Positions 2,976 through 10,402 of a stretch of 28,446 nucleotides of DNA are shown here, in pieces (the stretch's first letter is position 1; every line of letters starts with the position of its first letter). This DNA is from a virus. Lineage: Duplodnaviria; Heunggongvirae; Uroviricota; Caudoviricetes. The stretch is from IMG/VR virus record IMGVR_UViG_2622736468_000007, one strand, 5' to 3'. The translations under genes and the position numbers were made by a program. Below the pieces are notes generated by a model. It was given only the letters and a program-made list of their open reading frames with translations. It was not told the origin of the DNA and searched no databases.

Positions 2976-3200
2976 TCAGGGTGTCGATGAGTCCGGAAAG
3001 TGCCGGTACCCGGGATGCCCCCGTCGTCGTGTAATCAGAGCCGCAAGGCGGCGCTCCCACTCCTGCCGTCCCTGCCGGATCTCAGATAAGTTTTCCATGG
3101 TCATCTGCTGACCATTAAAGGTGACGGATTTTCCGTCCAGCACCGCCATTTCAGCTTCCGTATAACGCTGAATCATGGCTTCGATATCATTCTGGTTCAT
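2976..3200 (-). CDS. gpW-like head-tail joining protein (small, directly after terminase)
   Basis: 74-76 aa ORF whose ATG overlaps the terminase stop (ATGA) with GGAGG just upstream; position and size match lambda W; C-terminal RRRG motif. Confidence 0.45.
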   Translation of the reverse strand: MNQNDIEAMIQRYTEAEMAVLDGKSVTFNGQQMTMENLSEIRQGRQEWERRLAALITRRRGHPGYRHFPDSSTP

Positions 3201-5298
3201 AACCATCCTCCGGAAGTCAGCCAGGGGTTAACATCGTCAGTTACTGTTTTCTTCCGTTTTTGTTTTTTAACAGGCGTGGATACCGGTTCCGGTGTGGGTG
3301 ACGGTTCGGTACTGTCCGGGACACACTCCAGCCAGGTTTCCCGGCTCGCCCACTCCGGTGCATCCGGCCAGCGGATCTTTTCGTATCCATGCAGAATGAC
3401 CAGAGCCTCGGCATACACCATCAGGTCAAAAGCTTCGTTGGCACCGCGACCCGGCTTACTCCATTTCCCGTCACTGCTCCGCTCTTCATACGTCAGTTCG
3501 TCGTAAAACCAGCTCCCCAGCCAGTCAGGGAAATGCACATAGCCGGGACCTGGCGAGTCACGCCATAACGCGTTATTCACCCGGTCTTTCAGGGCATCCG
3601 TCTGAAGAAGCCAGAGCGGTACATCACCTGCGGCCTGCGCCCGTCGGCCCGTTCGTCCGGTGTTATCAGGGAATGTACGGGTGATCAGTTTTGCGCGCCG
3701 GATGCTGTCGCCCTTAAACAGGTAAATACGTTTACCAAGGCCATCACGACGGCAACGACGCCAGAATTTATAGGCATTATCAGTGACTCCGTCTTCACCG
3801 CCGGAGTCCACCGCCATTGCCATCAGTCGCATTTGTTGAGAAGGATCGGAGGCCAGCGGCCAGCTTTTATGAAAAACATCCGTCAGCAGGACATCCCAGT
3901 CTTCCGGATAGCTGGCCGGATCAATTCGCTGGCTCTCCCCGTCGCTGTCACCGCGCAATGACTGCGTGATGTTGTAACGATCAATAATCCAGCGTTCGCC
4001 ACGGCTGCCATAGCCCGTTACCTGAACCACAAAACGGCGATGACGTCCCGCCTGCACATCAACTGTCGCCACCAGGAAATTAACGCCATCCGGCACACTG
4101 CGGGAAGGAACTGGCTCTGCCCGCTGCTCAAGCAGTTCACTTTTTCGTTGCTCCATGCTGGCACGGGGAAGATAAGGTAATCCCCAGTCGGTATTGATAA
4201 CCGTCTTGAGTGTTTCTTCACTTCCGGTTGTCTCGTATTCCTGTTCTGCAGCAAGCAGTTTGTAAACGAGTTGCGAGAGTGTCTGGTAAGCAGCTGCCGG
4301 ACCCTCCATCCAGAATGACGCAATACGTGAGCGTCGGGGATCACCATAACGACTGCCATCCGCATTGATGGATTCACCATCCCGCAACCAGACCCCACGT
4401 CCGTTCAGCTCACGTTTTTGTTCAGGCATAATCCGTCCTGAACAGGAAGGACACTGAATATAAGCCGCCTCACTTGCCAGCACGGGATCGGCAATATCAC
4501 GGAAACCAGCAACCACATCGCCGCAGGGCTGAAAATACTCACCACAGTGTGGACAGGGCCAGTACCAGCGACGGCGATCGCCACGGTTATAGAGCGACAG
4601 TATCCCCGTGGTTGGTGGAGCCTCATGCGGTGAAGTCCGTCGCCATTTCACATCCTTCACATCCCTGCCGGGGAACTCTCCACCAGCGTCATACCACTGG
4701 ACATAAATGTGGTGGTACGTTTTGAGGCAAGAGAGAAGGCATCCTCCTCGCCATCAATATCTTCCGGAAAACGGTCATAATCCGTCAGCGCCACGCATTT
4801 ATAATCTGATGAGGACATGATATTGACTGACGGCCAGCCGATTTTCAGGTAGTTGCCAGCAAGGAATGTTCTGTCATAAACGTTGTTGTCATTTTTGTTC
4901 GGACTCAGGCGACTGACCACTTCCGGGCTGACGCGAAACGTTCTGGCAAGTCGTTTTTTGGAGTGTTCGCGGGCTTTTTCCTCCGTCATCTGAATGATCA
5001 GCATATCAGCAGGATCGCAAATCACGTTGTAAATCACCCAGCCGTCAATCAGGCCGATAGTCTTGCCAGTTCGTGCCGGGCCAACAAATATCACTGCGTC
5101 GTATTCACGCGAGGCCAGGCAGTTCATCGGCTCAATAACATACGGTGCCACCAGCGGATCCCACGGGACTGAGTTCCCGGCCCCCATGGGCACCCGCATA
5201 TACTGAGCAACGGCATCAGCAACCCGCATTCGTCTCGGTGCGCGAAGGATATAACCTGAATCGGTTCGTGCTGCCTTTGCGGTTTCCTGATTCAGCAT
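3197..5298 (-). pseudogene. terminase large subunit (GpA family) split into two frames (4657..5298 N-terminal ATPase part; 3197..4660 C-terminal part)
   Basis: N-terminal ORF carries Walker A (VIFVGPARTGKT); C-terminal ORF carries CPHCGEYF zinc-finger-like motif and nuclease region; frames change near 4657-4662, where the second ORF only has a GTG start overlapping the first ORF's TGA. Confidence 0.75.
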
Positions 5299-5300
5299 TA

Positions 5301-5468
5301 CTCCTCCTGCTGTAATTCCTCCTCATCATCCGCACCTGCTTCGGTCACCCGCAGGGCTATCTGATCGCGCAGATCATCAATAATGGACTGAACACGGCTC
5401 ACAGCGGCAGGCTGCAGGCCGCAGTCACGTTCCAGAATATCCGGTAATGTCTCCAGCACCTGCACGAC
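5301..5468 (-). pseudogene. terminase small subunit (Nu1-like), C-terminal part separated by IS insertion
   Basis: 56 in-frame codons ending ...DDEEELQQEE* with TAA overlapping the large-terminase ATG (TAATG); in frame with the N-terminal part across the IS629 insertion. Confidence 0.6.
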
Positions 5469-5510
5469 TGAACCGCCCCGGGTTTCCTGGAGAGTGTTTT
5501 ATCTGTGAAC

Positions 5511-6401
5511 TCAGGCTGCCGGATCATCGTTTCCGATGGAAGCATAATAAGCTTTTTCTGCTTCTGCCGGAGGAGTATGGCCCAGCCTTTCCAGCAATCG
5601 TCGATTGTTATACCAGTCCACCCACGTGAGTGTGGCCAGCTCCACTTCTGTCCGGTTTTTCCAGCTCTTACGGTGTATTACCTCCGCTTTGTAAAGACCA
5701 TTGATGCTCTCCGCCATCGCGTTGTCATACGAGTCGCCTGTACTTCCTGTTGATGCCAGTAATCCGGCTTCCTTAAGCCGCTGTGTGTAGGCCAGCGATA
5801 CATACTGAGAACCTTTATCACTGTGATGGACCGTGCCGGACGGTCGACGGGCCCATAACGCCTGCTCCAGTGCATCCAGCACGAATGTCGTTTCCATGGA
5901 CGATGAGACCCGCCACCCCACGATGTATCCGGCAAACACATCAATGATGAACGCCACATAGACGAAGCCCTGCCATGTGCTGACGTAAGTAAAATCAGCC
6001 ACCCACAGCTGGTCAGGTCGTTCTGCCACGAACTGACGGTTTACGCGGTCGCCTGCGGCAACGGCTTTCCGGCTGATGGTCGTACGGACCTTTTTACCCC
6101 GGAGAACACCGGCAAGTCCCATAACCGCCATGAGACGTGCCACAGTGCATCTGGCCACTCTGATACCTTCCCGTAACAACTGACGCCAGACTTTACGCAC
6201 ACCGTATACCTTGTGATTTTCATCGTATACGCGCTGTATCTCTTTCTTCAGCCAGTCATCGCGCTGCGCACGGGCACTGCGTTTATCCGGATGATGTCGC
6301 TGTTGCTGACAGTGGTAATACGTTGACGGGGCAATATGCAGTTCGCTGCATAGCGGTCCGACCCCGTACTGCTCACGCAGCTTATCCAGCAGTGGCATCA
6401 T
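5511..6401 (-). CDS. IS3-family transposase OrfB (DDE catalytic domain)
   Basis: 296 aa; typical IS3-family integrase-core sequence. Confidence 0.9.
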
Positions 6402-6724
6402 TTTTTCCAGAGGCGGTCGAACTCCGCCTTCGCAAAATAAGCGGAAGCCTGGCGAAGGATATCGTTACTGCGGCGCAGTTCACGATTTTCACGCTCCAGC
6501 TCTTTCAGACGCTGACGTTCAGCGGTGGTGAGCCCTCCATCACCGCCCCCGGTATCCCGCTCATGCTGGCGAACCCAGACACGCAGAGTCTCCGGCGTAC
6601 AGCCAATCTTTGGAGCAATGGAACAAATTGTCGCCCATTGTGAGTCATATTCGCTCTGACTTTCCAGAACCATACGGACTGCCCGTTGACGGACTTCGGG
6701 GGAAAAACGAGTATTTTTAGTCAT
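6398..6724 (-). CDS. IS3-family transposase OrfA (HTH, leucine zipper)
   Basis: 108 aa [19 protein letters not shown]...; overlaps orfB start as expected for frameshift-fused OrfAB. Confidence 0.9.
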
Positions 6725-6778
6725 CCTGTTTACCTCTTTCTCAGGAAGTTTAGTCTCCAGGATTCCCGGGGCGGTTCA

Positions 6779-7103
6779 CGACCGCTTTTGCCCAGATGGC
6801 AAACTCCCGTCTGACATCACTGGCCGGAATGAGTTGTGCCGTTTCCTGTTCGAACTTAAGACGCTCACGTTCAGACTGATACCAGGCTTTGCGTTCATGT
6901 GGATCCATTTCGCCCTCAGCAACCGGCGGTGGTAACCCCATAAATTCAGTCAGAATATCGGTCAACCGGTATAGCTTGAGTTTGTCATGTCCACCAGCGG
7001 GACGAATGTTTTTCAGTCTTGCCACGACAGTCTGGCGGTGCAGACCAGATAAAGCCGCCAGTTGATTAATATTCAGCACCAGGTTTTTCAACTCATGATC
7101 CAT
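6779..7103 (-). pseudogene. terminase small subunit (Nu1-like), N-terminal part interrupted by IS629-like element
   Basis: ORF 6750..7103 MDHELKNLVLNINQLAALSGLHRQTVVARLKNIRPAGG... (winged-HTH like Nu1); the last 8-9 codons are read-through into the IS end. Confidence 0.7.
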
Positions 7104-7264
7104 ATTTCCTCCGGAGAGCTTTAAACATGCATCGTGCGAACAACTTTAAGAAAACGCGTTCGATGTCGAACAAAAAACACTCAATTCGACATACAAAAAA
7201 CAAACAACCATTAATAATCAATAAGATGCAAAGATGATGGTGGCCGATAAAAATGCAAAAACTA

Positions 7265-7295
7265 GCCTTTTTCCGCGACGCTCCCGCCCCGTGGC
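7265..7295. other. candidate cos (cosN-like) site upstream of small terminase gene
   Basis: Minus-strand GGGGCGGGAGCGTCGCGG resembles remembered lambda cosN GGGCGGCGACCTCGCGG; lies ~170-190 bp upstream of the nu1-like start, as in lambda. Confidence 0.4.
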
Positions 7296-7470
7296 AGGGC
7301 CCCCCACAGGGAGGACCCGACAGCCTGACAACCGTGACGAGCATCTGAAACAGAGCTTTACATAATGGCATGGGGATAATTCAGAAGGACATCACAGCAT
7401 GCCCACACAAATTAGTGTGAGTGTCCTGTTTCTTACTACGCGCAGGACTGACGAGCATGAGGGGAAAATA

Positions 7471-8052
7471 GTAAGCGTACAGCCTGAACCGTCTGGTCAG
7501 AATCTGACGAATTAGACAAAGTGGTGTCCACCAAATAAGCAGTGGGAACCAAAGTATCAGATATGCAGAAAAATGTGACTCCCGGCAGGCGAAAAGGCTG
7601 CCCTAATTATCCTCCCGAATTTAAACAGCAGCTCGTTGCTGCCTCCTGTGAACCCGGGATATCCATCTCAAAACTTGCTCTTGAAAATGGCATTAACGCC
7701 AATCTGTTGTTCAAATGGCGACAACAATGGCGCGAGGGAAAGCTGCTATTACCTTCTTCAGAGAGCCCCCAGCTACTTCCTGTGACTCTCGATGCAGCTG
7801 CCGAACAGCCAGAATCGCTCGCAGAGGACCCGGAAACCCTCAGTATCAGCTGTGAGGTAACGTTCCGGCACGGGACGCTCCGCTTCAATGGCAATGTCAG
7901 CGAAAAGCTCCTGACTCTGCTGATACAGGAACTGAAGCGATGATCCCGTTACCTTCCGGGACCAAAATTTGGCTGGTTGCCGGTATCACCGATATGAGAA
8001 ATGGCTTCAACGGCCTGGCTGCGAAAGTACAAACGGCGCTGAAAGACGATCC
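7471..8052 (+). repeat. 582-bp inverted duplicate of the orfA-proximal end of the IS66-family element (partner 9913..10494)
   Basis: Sequence 7471-8052 is the reverse complement of 9913-10494 (orfA proteins identical except one residue, E/K). Confidence 0.85.
7563..7943 (+). CDS. IS66-family OrfA (TnpA accessory protein), partial-copy duplicate
   Basis: ORF 7542..7943 (GTG) with likely ATG at 7563; MQKNVTPGRRKGCPNYPPEFKQQL... Confidence 0.8.
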   Translation: MQKNVTPGRRKGCPNYPPEFKQQLVAASCEPGISISKLALENGINANLLFKWRQQWREGKLLLPSSESPQLLPVTLDAAAEQPESLAEDPETLSISCEVTFRHGTLRFNGNVSEKLLTLLIQELKR

Positions 8053-8056
8053 GTAA
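7940..8056 (+). pseudogene. IS66-family tnpB truncated after codon 38 at the junction with the inverted complete copy
   Basis: [38 protein letters not shown] ; the stop is supplied by the GTAAGCG terminal repeat of the adjacent copy. Confidence 0.8.
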
Positions 8057-8089
8057 GCGTGCAGCAAGAACCGTATTGACGGGGATGTG

Positions 8090-9628
8090 TTATTCAGTCG
8101 GCAGTGCTACGCGCCAGGGGAGCAGTTCGCCGACCCGGTTTATCGGCCAGTCGGCTATGACGTCAAGGACATAGCGGAGGTAGCTTTCTGGCTCCACTCC
8201 GTTCAGTTTGCACGTCCCGATCAGGCTGTACAGCAGCGCTCCCCGCTCTCCTCCATGATCCGAACCGAAGAACAGGTAGTTTTTGCGGCCCAGACTGACC
8301 ATCCGCAACGCATTTTCAGCGATGTTATTGTCCGCCTCAGCCCAGCCATCATCTGCATAGTACGTCAGCGCCGGCCACTGGTTCAGGGCGTATGCGAACG
8401 CTTTCGCCAGTTCTGAGTGTCGCGACAGGGTTTTCATCTTTTCACGCAGCCAGCTTTCCAGGGATTTCAGCAGCGGTTTCGTTTTCAACTGACGTTCGGC
8501 AAGGCGCTGTTCCGCCGTCATTCCCCTTATCTCTGCCTCGATGGCGTACAGTTCGCCGATCCGTTTCAGCGCTTCCTCCGTCAGGGCTGACGGGGTGCGA
8601 ACGTGCACATCGTGGATTTTACGGCGGGCGTGAGCCCAACAGGCGGCTTCCGTTATCCGGCCATCCCGGTACAGCTCGTTGAACCCGGCGTATGCATCCG
8701 CCTGCAGTACACCACTGAACCCCGCAAGATGGGTCTGCGGATGGATGCCTTTTCTGTCCGGGCTGTAAGCGAACCACACCGCCGGCGCCAGCGTTGACCC
8801 GGCGTTACGGTCGTCACGAACATACGCCCACAACCGCCCGGTCTTCGTTTTCTTATTGCCTGGCAACAGCACCGGGACAGGCGTGTCATCAACATGGAGC
8901 TTACCGTCAGTCAGCACATAGCCATGAAGCGCCTCTTCCAGCGGAGACAGCAGCCGGCAGCATGCATCCACCCAGCCCGACAGCAGTGAACGGCTCAGCT
9001 CCACACCTTGCCGGCCGTATATTTCTGACTGGCGATACAGCGGGGTGTGCTCTGCATACTTCGAGGTCAGCACGCGGGCCAGCAGCCCCGGTCCGGCGAT
9101 ACCCCGCTCGATGGGCCGCGAAGGTGCAGGTGCCTGCACGATGGCATCGCACTGAGTACAGGCATGTTTTTCCCGTACCGTCCGGATAACCCGGAAGGCG
9201 CTACGCATCAACTCCAGCTGTTCGGCGGTATCCTCGCCCAGATAACTCAGTGAACCGCCGCAGTTCGGGCAGCACGGCGCCGCAGGCAACAGTCGCTTTT
9301 CGTCACGGGGTAGTGATTCAGGGAACGGCTTACGGGTGCGGGTCTGACGCAACGGACGCTGTACTGCCGGGTCATACACCCTACCAGTCAGCGTATCGCT
9401 CTCTTTCTGAAGCCGGTTCAGATCGGCTTCCATTTGTGCGATACGGCGGGAGACTTTTTCGGAACGACTGCCGAAGTTCATCCGGCGGAGTTTATCCAGC
9501 TGCGCCTGCAGATGGTCTATTTCGCGCTCCCGGTTGCTCAGCTTTTCCTGCAGGGCGTGGATCAGCGCTTCCTGTTCGGCCAGGCGCTGTTTCAGCAGGA
9601 AGATGTCGTCAGAAGAGATGTCGTTCAT
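8090..9628 (-). CDS. IS66-family transposase (TnpC, DDE)
   Basis: 512 aa; leucine-zipper N-terminus, CxxC zinc motif, DDE core typical of IS66 transposases. Confidence 0.9.
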
Positions 9629-9677
9629 AAGCCCGTATTTTACCGGGCTTATTCTGTGACAACCAGGATAAAGAGAT

Positions 9678-10025
9678 TTACAGCATGGTCAGGGAGGTCA
9701 GCAGCCGCTTAGGCTGTCGCCAGTCGATACCTTCCAGCAGCATCGCCAGCTGCGCCTGTGTAAGGAACACTTTGCCATCACGGGCTGACGGCCAGGCGAA
9801 GCGCCCACGCTCCAGCCGTTTGGTCAGGAGGCACAGTCCGTCACCGGTGGACCACAGCAGTTTAACCTGACTGCCGCTGCGGCCCCGGAAAATGAAAACA
9901 TGGCCGGACATGGGATCGTCTTTCAGCGCCGTCTGTACTTTCGCAGCCAGGCCGTTGAAGCCATTTCTCATATCGGTGATACCGGCAACCAGCCAAATTT
10001 TGGTCCCGGAAGGTAACGGGATCAT
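9678..10025 (-). CDS. IS66-family TnpB
   Basis: 115 aa [31 protein letters not shown]...; ATGA overlap with orfA. Confidence 0.9.
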
Positions 10026-10402
10026 CGCTTCAGTTCCTGTATCAGCAGAGTCAGGAGCTTTTCGCTGACATTGCCATTGAAGCGGAGCGTCCCGTGCCGG
10101 AACGTTACCTCACAGCTGATACTGAGGGTTTTCGGGTCCTCTGCGAGCGATTCTGGCTGTTCGGCAGCTGCATCGAGAGTCACAGGAAGTAGCTGGGGGC
10201 TCTCTGAAGAAGGTAATAGCAGCTTTCCCTCGCGCCATTGTTGTCGCCATTTGAACAACAGATTGGCGTTAATGCCATTTTCAAGAGCAAGTTTTGAGAT
10301 GGATATCCCGGGTTCACAGGAGGCAGCAACGAGCTGCTGTTTAAATTCGGGAGGATAATTAGGGCAGCCTTTTCGCCTGCCGGGAGTCACATTTTTCTGC
10401 AT
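10022..10402 (-). CDS. IS66-family OrfA (TnpA)
   Basis: ORF 10022..10423 (GTG start); likely ATG start 21 nt in. Confidence 0.85.
   Translation of the reverse strand: MQKNVTPGRRKGCPNYPPEFKQQLVAASCEPGISISKLALENGINANLLFKWRQQWREGKLLLPSSESPQLLPVTLDAAAEQPESLAEDPKTLSISCEVTFRHGTLRFNGNVSEKLLTLLIQELKR

Follow-up and report, generated by a model that had tools for sequence, protein, structure and literature searches.

A predicted lambda-type cos site preserved in a decayed lambdoid prophage

Results

A lambdoid prophage with disrupted terminase and morphogenesis genes

The DNA analysed here, hereafter the window, is a stretch of 28,446 nucleotides from a virus of the Caudoviricetes (IMG/VR record IMGVR_UViG_2622736468_000007). 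It carries a small terminase gene (TerS) of the DUF1441/phrog_141 type followed by GpA_ATPase and GpA_nuclease regions of a large terminase gene (TerL), in an order transcribed away from a short GC-rich segment, the predicted cosN. The genes and mobile elements around this segment are:

3197..5298, minus strand: gpA-type TerL in two frames, 5298..4657 and 4660..3197, with GpA_ATPase and GpA_nuclease matches
5298..5468, minus strand: C-terminal piece of TerS, covering DUF1441 profile positions 107-146 and aligning to the 3′ end of the PhiR40_1 TerS
5469..6776, minus strand: IS3-family element (IS629/IS1203-like) with ends TGAACCGCCCC... and IS3-type orfA and orfB, interrupting TerS
6777..7103, minus strand: N-terminal piece of TerS, about 109 codons with a helix-turn-helix (Pfam DUF1441, 6e-30; phrog_141 'terminase small subunit', 3e-77)
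7471-10494: IS66-family element of 3 kb, 181 bp from the nick on the cosQ side, with a clean 8-bp target duplication GGAAAATA

The IS3-family element interrupts TerS after about codon 109: when aligned to the intact TerS of PhiR40_1, the match ends at 6777 and is picked up again at 5468, and both junctions carry a copy of GTCG. The equivalent element is called IS1203 in RefSeq and is also inserted in the DUF1441 genes of O157:H7 prophages; the DUF1441 TerS gene may be a recurrent IS target, or these insertions may share ancestry. The IS arrangement of the window was found in none of the complete E. coli genomes of RefSeq, and searching species-representative genomes for the exact junction gave no match. 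TerL is split by a 1-nt indel (4657-4660) relative to the TerL of PhiR40_1 and of an intact related prophage in E. coli NZ_CP099752.1 (the CP099752 prophage), which has its head, tail, lysis, Q and immunity genes in full. Moreover, the genes from portal to tail tube are deleted, with a junction at ~3002-3009 where the 3′ end of TerL is joined to the tail tube gene, and a second deletion joins the tail tube gene to a tail-fibre remnant (1992-2108). Together, the deletions have removed about 20 kb of morphogenesis genes compared with the CP099752 prophage.

The IS66-family element has an unusual, rearranged structure. Its ends form a 582-bp inverted duplication of 99.3% identity (7471-8052 versus 10494-9913), so that the tnpA-side end is found at both termini, with a partial tnpA-tnpB′ facing a complete tnpA-tnpB-tnpC. 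A further 768 bp (14292-15059), located towards the Q gene from the lysis genes, are inserted relative to the CP099752 prophage; the ends are IS1-like (GGTGATG...) and the target is duplicated over 9 bp (CTCATCCCC). A gene for a 339-aa DUF4365 protein, which may be of the cargo or defence type, occupies 25932-26951 (plus strand); it lies between the early region of the prophage and the integrase gene (27223-28446, minus strand).

A candidate cosN beside the terminase genes

The original prediction had placed a GC-rich motif resembling lambda cosN at 7265-7295. This motif is present, with a G+C content of 74% at 7265-7295 compared to 35% at 7104-7264 and 47% in the whole window; on its other side, the motif is bordered by more GC-rich DNA. 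Since the TerS gene lies on the minus strand, the cos region must be read on the minus strand as well. The motif was therefore correctly located, but both cos and gene are on the minus strand and the full site extends well beyond the 31 bp flagged. Counting bp from the first base of the cohesive end, and with slashes in the sequences marking predicted nicks, the following features can be assigned:

~7162 to 7318, minus strand: full predicted cos site
7312..7318, minus strand: cosQ-like heptamer GGGTCCT (packaging-termination subsite in lambda), identical to lambda bp 48473-48479
7276..7291, minus strand: predicted cosN, CG/GGGCGGGAGCGT/CG, from the cdtI and Tritos record starts, the lambda comparison and its sole match in the window
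7289..7278, minus strand: predicted 12-nt 5′ cohesive end GGGCGGGAGCGT
7290/7289 on the minus strand and 7278/7277 on the plus strand: predicted nicks
7256..7277, minus strand: conserved block CGCGGAAAAAGGCTAGTTTTTG, bp 13-34, at the position of lambda I2 and putatively of like function
7233..7243, minus strand: candidate R3-like TerS-binding site CCACCATCATC, bp 47-57, from position and comparison
7216..7228, plus strand: candidate IHF-like site AATCAATAAGATG, bp 62-74, between the R3-like and R2-like sites, with one mismatch to WATCAANNNNTTR
7185..7192, minus strand: candidate R2-like site ATGTCGAA, bp 98-105, an inverted copy of R1, from the inverted repeat and comparison
7162..7170, minus strand: candidate R1-like site TTCGACATC, bp 120-128, from comparison

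On the minus strand the region around cosN reads ...CCACG/GGGCGGGAGCGT/CGCGGAAAAAGGC, or, in a longer form, ...GGGTCCTCCCTGTGGGGGGCCCTGCCACG/GGGCGGGAGCGT/CGCGGAAAAAGGCTAGTTTTTGC..., and the corresponding junction of lambda is ...GGGTCCTTTCCGGTGATCCGACAGGTTACG/GGGCGGCGACCT/CGCGGGTTTTCGC.... The predicted cohesive end shares 8 of its 12 bases with that of lambda, including all six of the left half, and differs at positions 7, 8, 9 and 11 only. The left half GGGCGG (bp 1-6) is the same in the window, lambda, phi80, N15 and LLS, so that all differences among their cohesive ends fall within bp 7-12. Furthermore, 5′-CG-3′ pairs flank both nicks (..CACG/GGG...GCGT/CGCGG), as they do in these four phages. 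The records of lambda, phi80 and N15 annotate a 12-nt 5′ extension, while the LLS annotation is itself an inferred one (PMC12315714). Lambda-like phages have 12-base 5′ cohesive ends similar to those of lambda, in which natural variation is concentrated at bp 7-12 and the CG pairs at both nicks are highly conserved, as is the 7-bp cosQ (Feiss and colleagues, PMC4669245).

Short GC-rich motifs are common, and an agreement of 8/12 bases with the lambda cohesive end, taken alone, might reflect a chance resemblance of a GC-rich run that has nothing to do with packaging. However, the 16-mer CGGGGCGGGAGCGTCG occurs only once in the window, at 7276-7291 (minus strand; 0.09 matches expected by chance at up to 3 mismatches), and the composite pattern GGGTCCT-N20-25-CGGGGCGG-N6-CG, which combines cosQ and cosN, was found once in the window and in none of 100 shuffles; the motif is thus real rather than a chance match. 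Neither scan detected a second cos in the window. A literature search for the 12-mer GGGCGGGAGCGT returned unrelated eukaryotic papers only.

The predicted nick coincides with the ends of deposited phage records

A blastn search of window positions 7104-7470 against 50,697 phage records yielded 34 matches, all of them to lambdoid coliphages, and in three records the match boundaries lay at the record termini. The records of cdtI (AB285204.1) and Tritos (OV696610.1) open with GGGCGGGAGCGTCGCGGAAAAAGGCTAGTTTTT, which corresponds to window 7289..7257 in reverse complement, and GGGCGGGAGCGT forms their first 12 nt. The linear Tritos record ends with ...CTGCCACG (...CCCCTGCCACG), corresponding to the window up to 7290 and adjoining the start base. 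Tritos, a siphovirus from E. coli LF82, forms plaques (PMC9928086). The termini of both phages are taken as deposited, either measured or set by analogy to lambda, and the main text of the Tritos paper does not mention how the ends were determined. The original prediction had named alignment to known cos sites as its test, and such an alignment was obtained, both at these record starts and, for GGGCGG and the CG pairs, with lambda, phi80, N15 and LLS. Matches to the cosN 25-mer in IMG/VR are mostly internal to contigs, which is consistent with integrated prophages and uninformative about genome ends.

One assembly, LR595868.1 (mEp460_4F5), opens 5 bp before the nick and reads GGGCGGGAGCGCGG at positions 1-20, without the TC of GGGCGGGAGCGTCGCGG. 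The missing TC probably reflects misassembly at the cohesive end and not true variation.

cosQ and the distance to the terminase gene follow lambda geometry

The heptamer GGGTCCT, which we take to be lambda's cosQ as described by Wieczorek and Feiss, lies 22 bp from the nick on its upstream side in the window and 23 bp in lambda. It is kept in nine relatives with diverged surrounding sequence. On the other side of cosN, the ATG of TerS at 7103 is bp 187 from the first cohesive-end base (7289), close to the start of Nu1 in lambda (bp 191) and to the corresponding position in phi80 (bp 190); the distance to the small-terminase gene is hence the one that had been expected. Together with the identity of more than 33 nt to the opening bases of two phage records, the correct placement and orientation beside terminase genes and the retention of the same arrangement in dozens of phages and prophages leave a coincidental resemblance with a negligible probability.

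Just upstream of cosQ, a palindrome GATAA(T/C)CATTATC is found in lambda (48452-48466), mEp213, CP-1639, VT1-Sakai and Kp4865-4. It is missing in the window, Tritos and PhiR40_1, where GTCAGGCTGTC takes its place. The palindrome resembles the Fur-box consensus.

The small terminase is only distantly related to Nu1

The gene next to cos had been described as Nu1-like. A Pfam search with TerS returned DUF1441 and no Phage_Nu1 match at E<=0.01, BLASTP against lambda Nu1 gave no alignment, and hhalign of the two proteins reached a probability of 6.5%. By significant profile match, TerS is thus not a member of the Nu1 family (Phage_Nu1/phrog_57). However, reciprocal cross-matches between PHROGs were found over nearly the full length (TerS to phrog_57, 8e-9; Nu1 to phrog_141, 6e-8), indicating that TerS is a remote Nu1 relative with its N-terminal helix-turn-helix placed as in Nu1. 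The description therefore stands for a distant relationship but not for family membership, which is DUF1441/phrog_141. Searches of PDB sequences with the TerS protein and with a 9-sequence profile gave nothing meaningful. The DUF1441 family comprises the annotated TerS of mEp460, mEp213, LLS, Gifsy-2, Fels-1, VT1-Sakai, cdtI, Tritos and Cr-LKS3, and in each of these nine phages it is followed by a gpA-type TerL.

A candidate cosB with an R3/IHF/R2/R1 layout

It had also been proposed that the AT-rich spacer between the motif and the gene could hold cosB and IHF elements, and our comparison brought to light candidates for both whose positions are conserved. In lambda, cosB has the order R3-I1-R2-R1, with R2 inverted relative to R3 and R1; R3 occupies bp 50-65 there and bp 48-60 in N15 (PMC9026076). 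We compared the window with PhiR40_1, phi458/mEp460, CP-1639, VT1-Sakai, Fels-1, Gifsy-2, mEp213, Kp4865-4 and Chris1, diverged phages with a TerS of the DUF1441 family, whose cos regions were anchored on the conserved CGCGG at bp 13.

Directly after cosN, the I2-like block CGCGGAAAAAGGCTAGTTTTTG shows 100% identity to PhiR40_1, phi458, Tritos and the CP099752 prophage, with both flanks diverging, and its form CGCGGRAA..GGC...TTTTT is kept across all DUF1441-TerS relatives compared. The R3-like candidate lies where R3 is found in lambda and N15. A direct block of the TCRNCAYC type is present at bp 43-57 in 7 of 8 diverged relatives, being missing in Gifsy-2; the block of the window itself, CCACCATCATC, resembles R1 and R2 weakly. 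For the IHF-like candidate, matches to the consensus WATCAANNNNTTR with one mismatch are not enriched in the window (45 versus 34 expected). A TTGATW core, the reverse complement of the IHF core ATCAA, lies at bp 69-71 in the window and in five of the eight diverged DUF1441-TerS relatives scanned, and also in cdtI and Tritos. We thus keep this site as a candidate because of its conserved position and not because of its consensus match.

The R2-like site (7185-7192) and positions 7163-7170 of the R1-like site form a perfect 8-bp inverted repeat. A lone repeat of this length in ~230 AT-rich bp could arise by chance. In the relatives, however, an inverted block is present at bp 95-99 in all eight diverged phages, and a direct TCRNCAYY block, preceded by a T-rich run, at bp 119-124 in 9/9; in the layout as a whole, these two blocks are placed at bp 95-105 and bp 119-130. 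When the reverse complement of R2 was compared with R1 within each of nine phages, the best 12-mer match averaged 9.1, a value reached by 0 of 2000 shuffles; the cross-phage mean was 7.9, and 11 of 2000 label permutations reached the observed within-phage value. As the phages are mutually related, these statistics overstate their independence. The spacing between R2 and R1 is ~22 bp in the window versus ~42 bp in lambda. The support for the R sites is thus comparative, and we consider the putative cosB well supported in its layout and unproven in its detail.

No promoter and no Rfam family was found in the cos region, and DNA secondary structure is not in excess there (z = 0.86). A single terminator-like hairpin, which is within chance expectation, coincides with the R1-like palindrome.

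Conservation of the cos region is not that of a gene

As a 92-aa ORF (7371..7093, minus strand) spans cos and the PhiR40_1 record carries a 'hypothetical protein' CDS across cosQ, cosN and cosB (PV340560.1, 18169-18474), the segment might be protein-coding and its conservation might reflect a gene rather than a DNA site. However, a comparison of 14 relatives revealed no open frame spanning the nick whose phase or length is kept, and the frame of 95 codons in the window shrinks to 41 in the near-identical CP099752 prophage. The product would be Cys/Phe-rich and of low complexity, and its ORF would be cut in two in the virion. Moreover, conservation is block-wise, as for DNA motifs, and lacks third-position periodicity. 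We therefore regard a coding function as extremely improbable, and the CDS in PhiR40_1 is very probably a spurious gene call. The region, read as a cos site, matches 2122 of 5426 complete E. coli genomes, with 1370 of them covering at least 80% of it, and among the matches listed every RefSeq match has 'none' as its annotation.

Three cosB types and a recombination joint next to cosN

A survey of 106 IMG/VR loci with an identical cosN 25-mer revealed three main cosB types: type A, that of the window, at 15 loci, type B (mEp460) at 56 and type C (cdtI/Tritos) at 34. Each is tied, without exception in these 106 loci, to one sequence of the N-terminal DNA-binding domain of TerS; adjacency alone would also produce such a linkage. 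The window itself is mosaic exactly at cosN, as is seen from its identities to the CP099752 prophage and to PhiR40_1:

cosQ side: 98.9% to the CP099752 prophage, 79.8% to PhiR40_1
34 bp of cosN and I2-like block: 100% to the CP099752 prophage, 100% to PhiR40_1, and also 100% to phi458 and Tritos
cosB: ~76% to the CP099752 prophage, 98.7% to PhiR40_1
N-terminal piece of TerS: ~84% to the CP099752 prophage, 100% to PhiR40_1

The informative point, as judged from these alignments, is the recombination joint between cosN/I2 and cosB and not the linkage itself. Such mosaicism is in line with what is established for lambda and phage 21, which have cosQ and cosN in common while cosB and TerS set specificity (PMC4669245).

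Discussion

Our analysis identified a GC-rich segment that is identical to the termini of known phage records and has lambda geometry, with subsites at conserved positions and a cosB that is inherited with TerS as a module. We are highly confident that it represents a lambda-type cos site which has been preserved in a decayed lambdoid prophage. It is a standard lambda-like site and as such already known, since its core sequence opens public phage records from cdtI onward. The whole cos/TerS module is likewise known and intact in the deposited phages PhiR40_1, PhiR47_1 and PhiR55_1.

Of these, PhiR40_1 (PV340560.1) is of type A, and PhiR47_1 and PhiR55_1 belong with it. In PhiR40_1, TerS, TerL and the head genes are intact, and the flank on the cosQ side is only ~80% identical. 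Its record is in prophage order with cos unannotated and hence provides no information on termini. The identity of cdtI and Tritos to the window extends over cosQ, cosN and the 33-37 bp that follow the nick, and in both phages a DUF1441-family TerS precedes a gpA-type TerL. However, their cosB is unrelated from about bp 35 (70% over a short stretch) and their TerS is only ~42% identical, so that packaging specificity is probably different.

Like lambda, the window has a 12-nt G-rich cohesive end with GGGCGG as its left half, CG at the nicks and GGGTCCT at about the same distance. Moreover, as in lambda, the candidate R3 at ~bp 50 is followed by a candidate IHF-like site, the R2-like candidate is inverted relative to those for R3 and R1, TerS starts at ~bp 190 and TerL is gpA-type. 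In contrast, the R sequences are unrelated, with CTGTCGTTTCC in lambda and the TCRNCAYC type in the window, and TerS is DUF1441 instead of Phage_Nu1. The putative cos GGGCGGCGCGCT of mEp213 and LLS, which was inferred by the same logic by Feiss (PMC12315714), has a DUF1441 TerS (~57% identity) and the same R3/TTGAT/R2/R1 layout. It differs from the window at five positions of the cohesive end and has a shorter cosB with the TerS ATG at bp 130, where R1 consequently abuts the start codon.

From these likenesses we infer how the site would have been used by the ancestral phage. On the minus strand, the order would be cosQ (7318..7312), cosN (7291..7276), the I2-like block (7277..7256) and cosB (~7243..7162). 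A dimer of the DUF1441/phrog_141 TerS would bind cosB across an IHF bend and thereby position the large subunit on cosN, where the gpA-type TerL would make staggered nicks, leaving the 12-nt 5′ overhang GGGCGGGAGCGT. Packaging would then proceed toward lower window coordinates. Nicking, the binding of TerS and IHF and the chemistry of the overhang are deduced here from sequence comparison. According to this model, the ancestral phage genome had its left end exactly at cos, and the prophage is to be classed with phages that package from a lambda-like cos by means of a DUF1441 small terminase.

The subsites cosQ, cosN and cosB are untouched by the IS insertions, whose boundaries lie at 6776 and 7471, and by the TerL indel and the deletions. 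With the site intact and its cognate enzyme lost in cis, cleavage is possible only by a type-A terminase acting in trans. This agrees with the original prediction that the site could function only with a helper, given the IS element in TerS, the frameshift in TerL and the loss of the genes from portal to tail. A lone cos would allow lambda-type packaging to begin but not to end normally.

An undamaged cosQ-cosN-cosB that is flanked by IS elements in DNA devoid of a working terminase or head genes could suggest that the site still works as a hitch-hiking signal, redirecting the terminase of a helper as in PICIs, and enterobacterial PICIs do carry lambda-like cos sites (PMC9026076). However, the gene beside cos is no Rpp-type redirecting protein but an ordinary TerS, which is followed by TerL and was recently disrupted by an IS, the remainder being 100% identical to an intact phage gene. 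Neither an rpp-type gene beside cos nor the content of a compact island was found; instead, the lambdoid Q, lysis, tail-remnant and integrase genes point to a decaying full prophage. Moreover, the intact state is common in E. coli. We therefore consider a PICI-like role very unlikely.

The present cos of this decaying prophage is a relic, unless it serves as a substrate for the terminase of another phage, co-resident or superinfecting, that has the cosB specificity of PhiR40_1. It is unlikely, though less so than a PICI-like role, that the relic is used in trans for cos-initiated packaging of flanking DNA or that the truncated TerS interferes with other phages. In the first case, a type-A phage would cleave cos and unidirectional packaging would run toward lower coordinates, from the prophage remnant into the flanking chromosome, resulting in cos-initiated lateral-type transduction. 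Alternatively, the truncated TerS, a ~110-aa DNA-binding domain without the TerL-binding tail, would occupy the cosB of type-A phages and hinder them.

Annotation pipelines leave cos sites unmarked, and the importance of the site itself reaches little beyond annotation. More generally, one cosQ/cosN core is common to at least three TerS/cosB specificity modules, with a conserved R3/IHF/R2/R1 layout for DUF1441 terminases. This layout might be modestly useful, as it offers concrete mutation targets for studies of packaging specificity or of the helper-dependent mobilisation of defective prophages. A fourth, rare cosB/TerS type with the same cosN was observed in IMGVR_UViG_2547132488_000009 (cos at 9856-9880, minus strand). 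Its R2-like and R1-like blocks are TATGTTAA and GTCAACATA versus ATGTCGAA and TTCGACATC in the window, and in the recognition helix of its TerS an otherwise invariant His (LHRQT) is replaced by Cys (ICRQT), a possible case of protein-DNA covariation.
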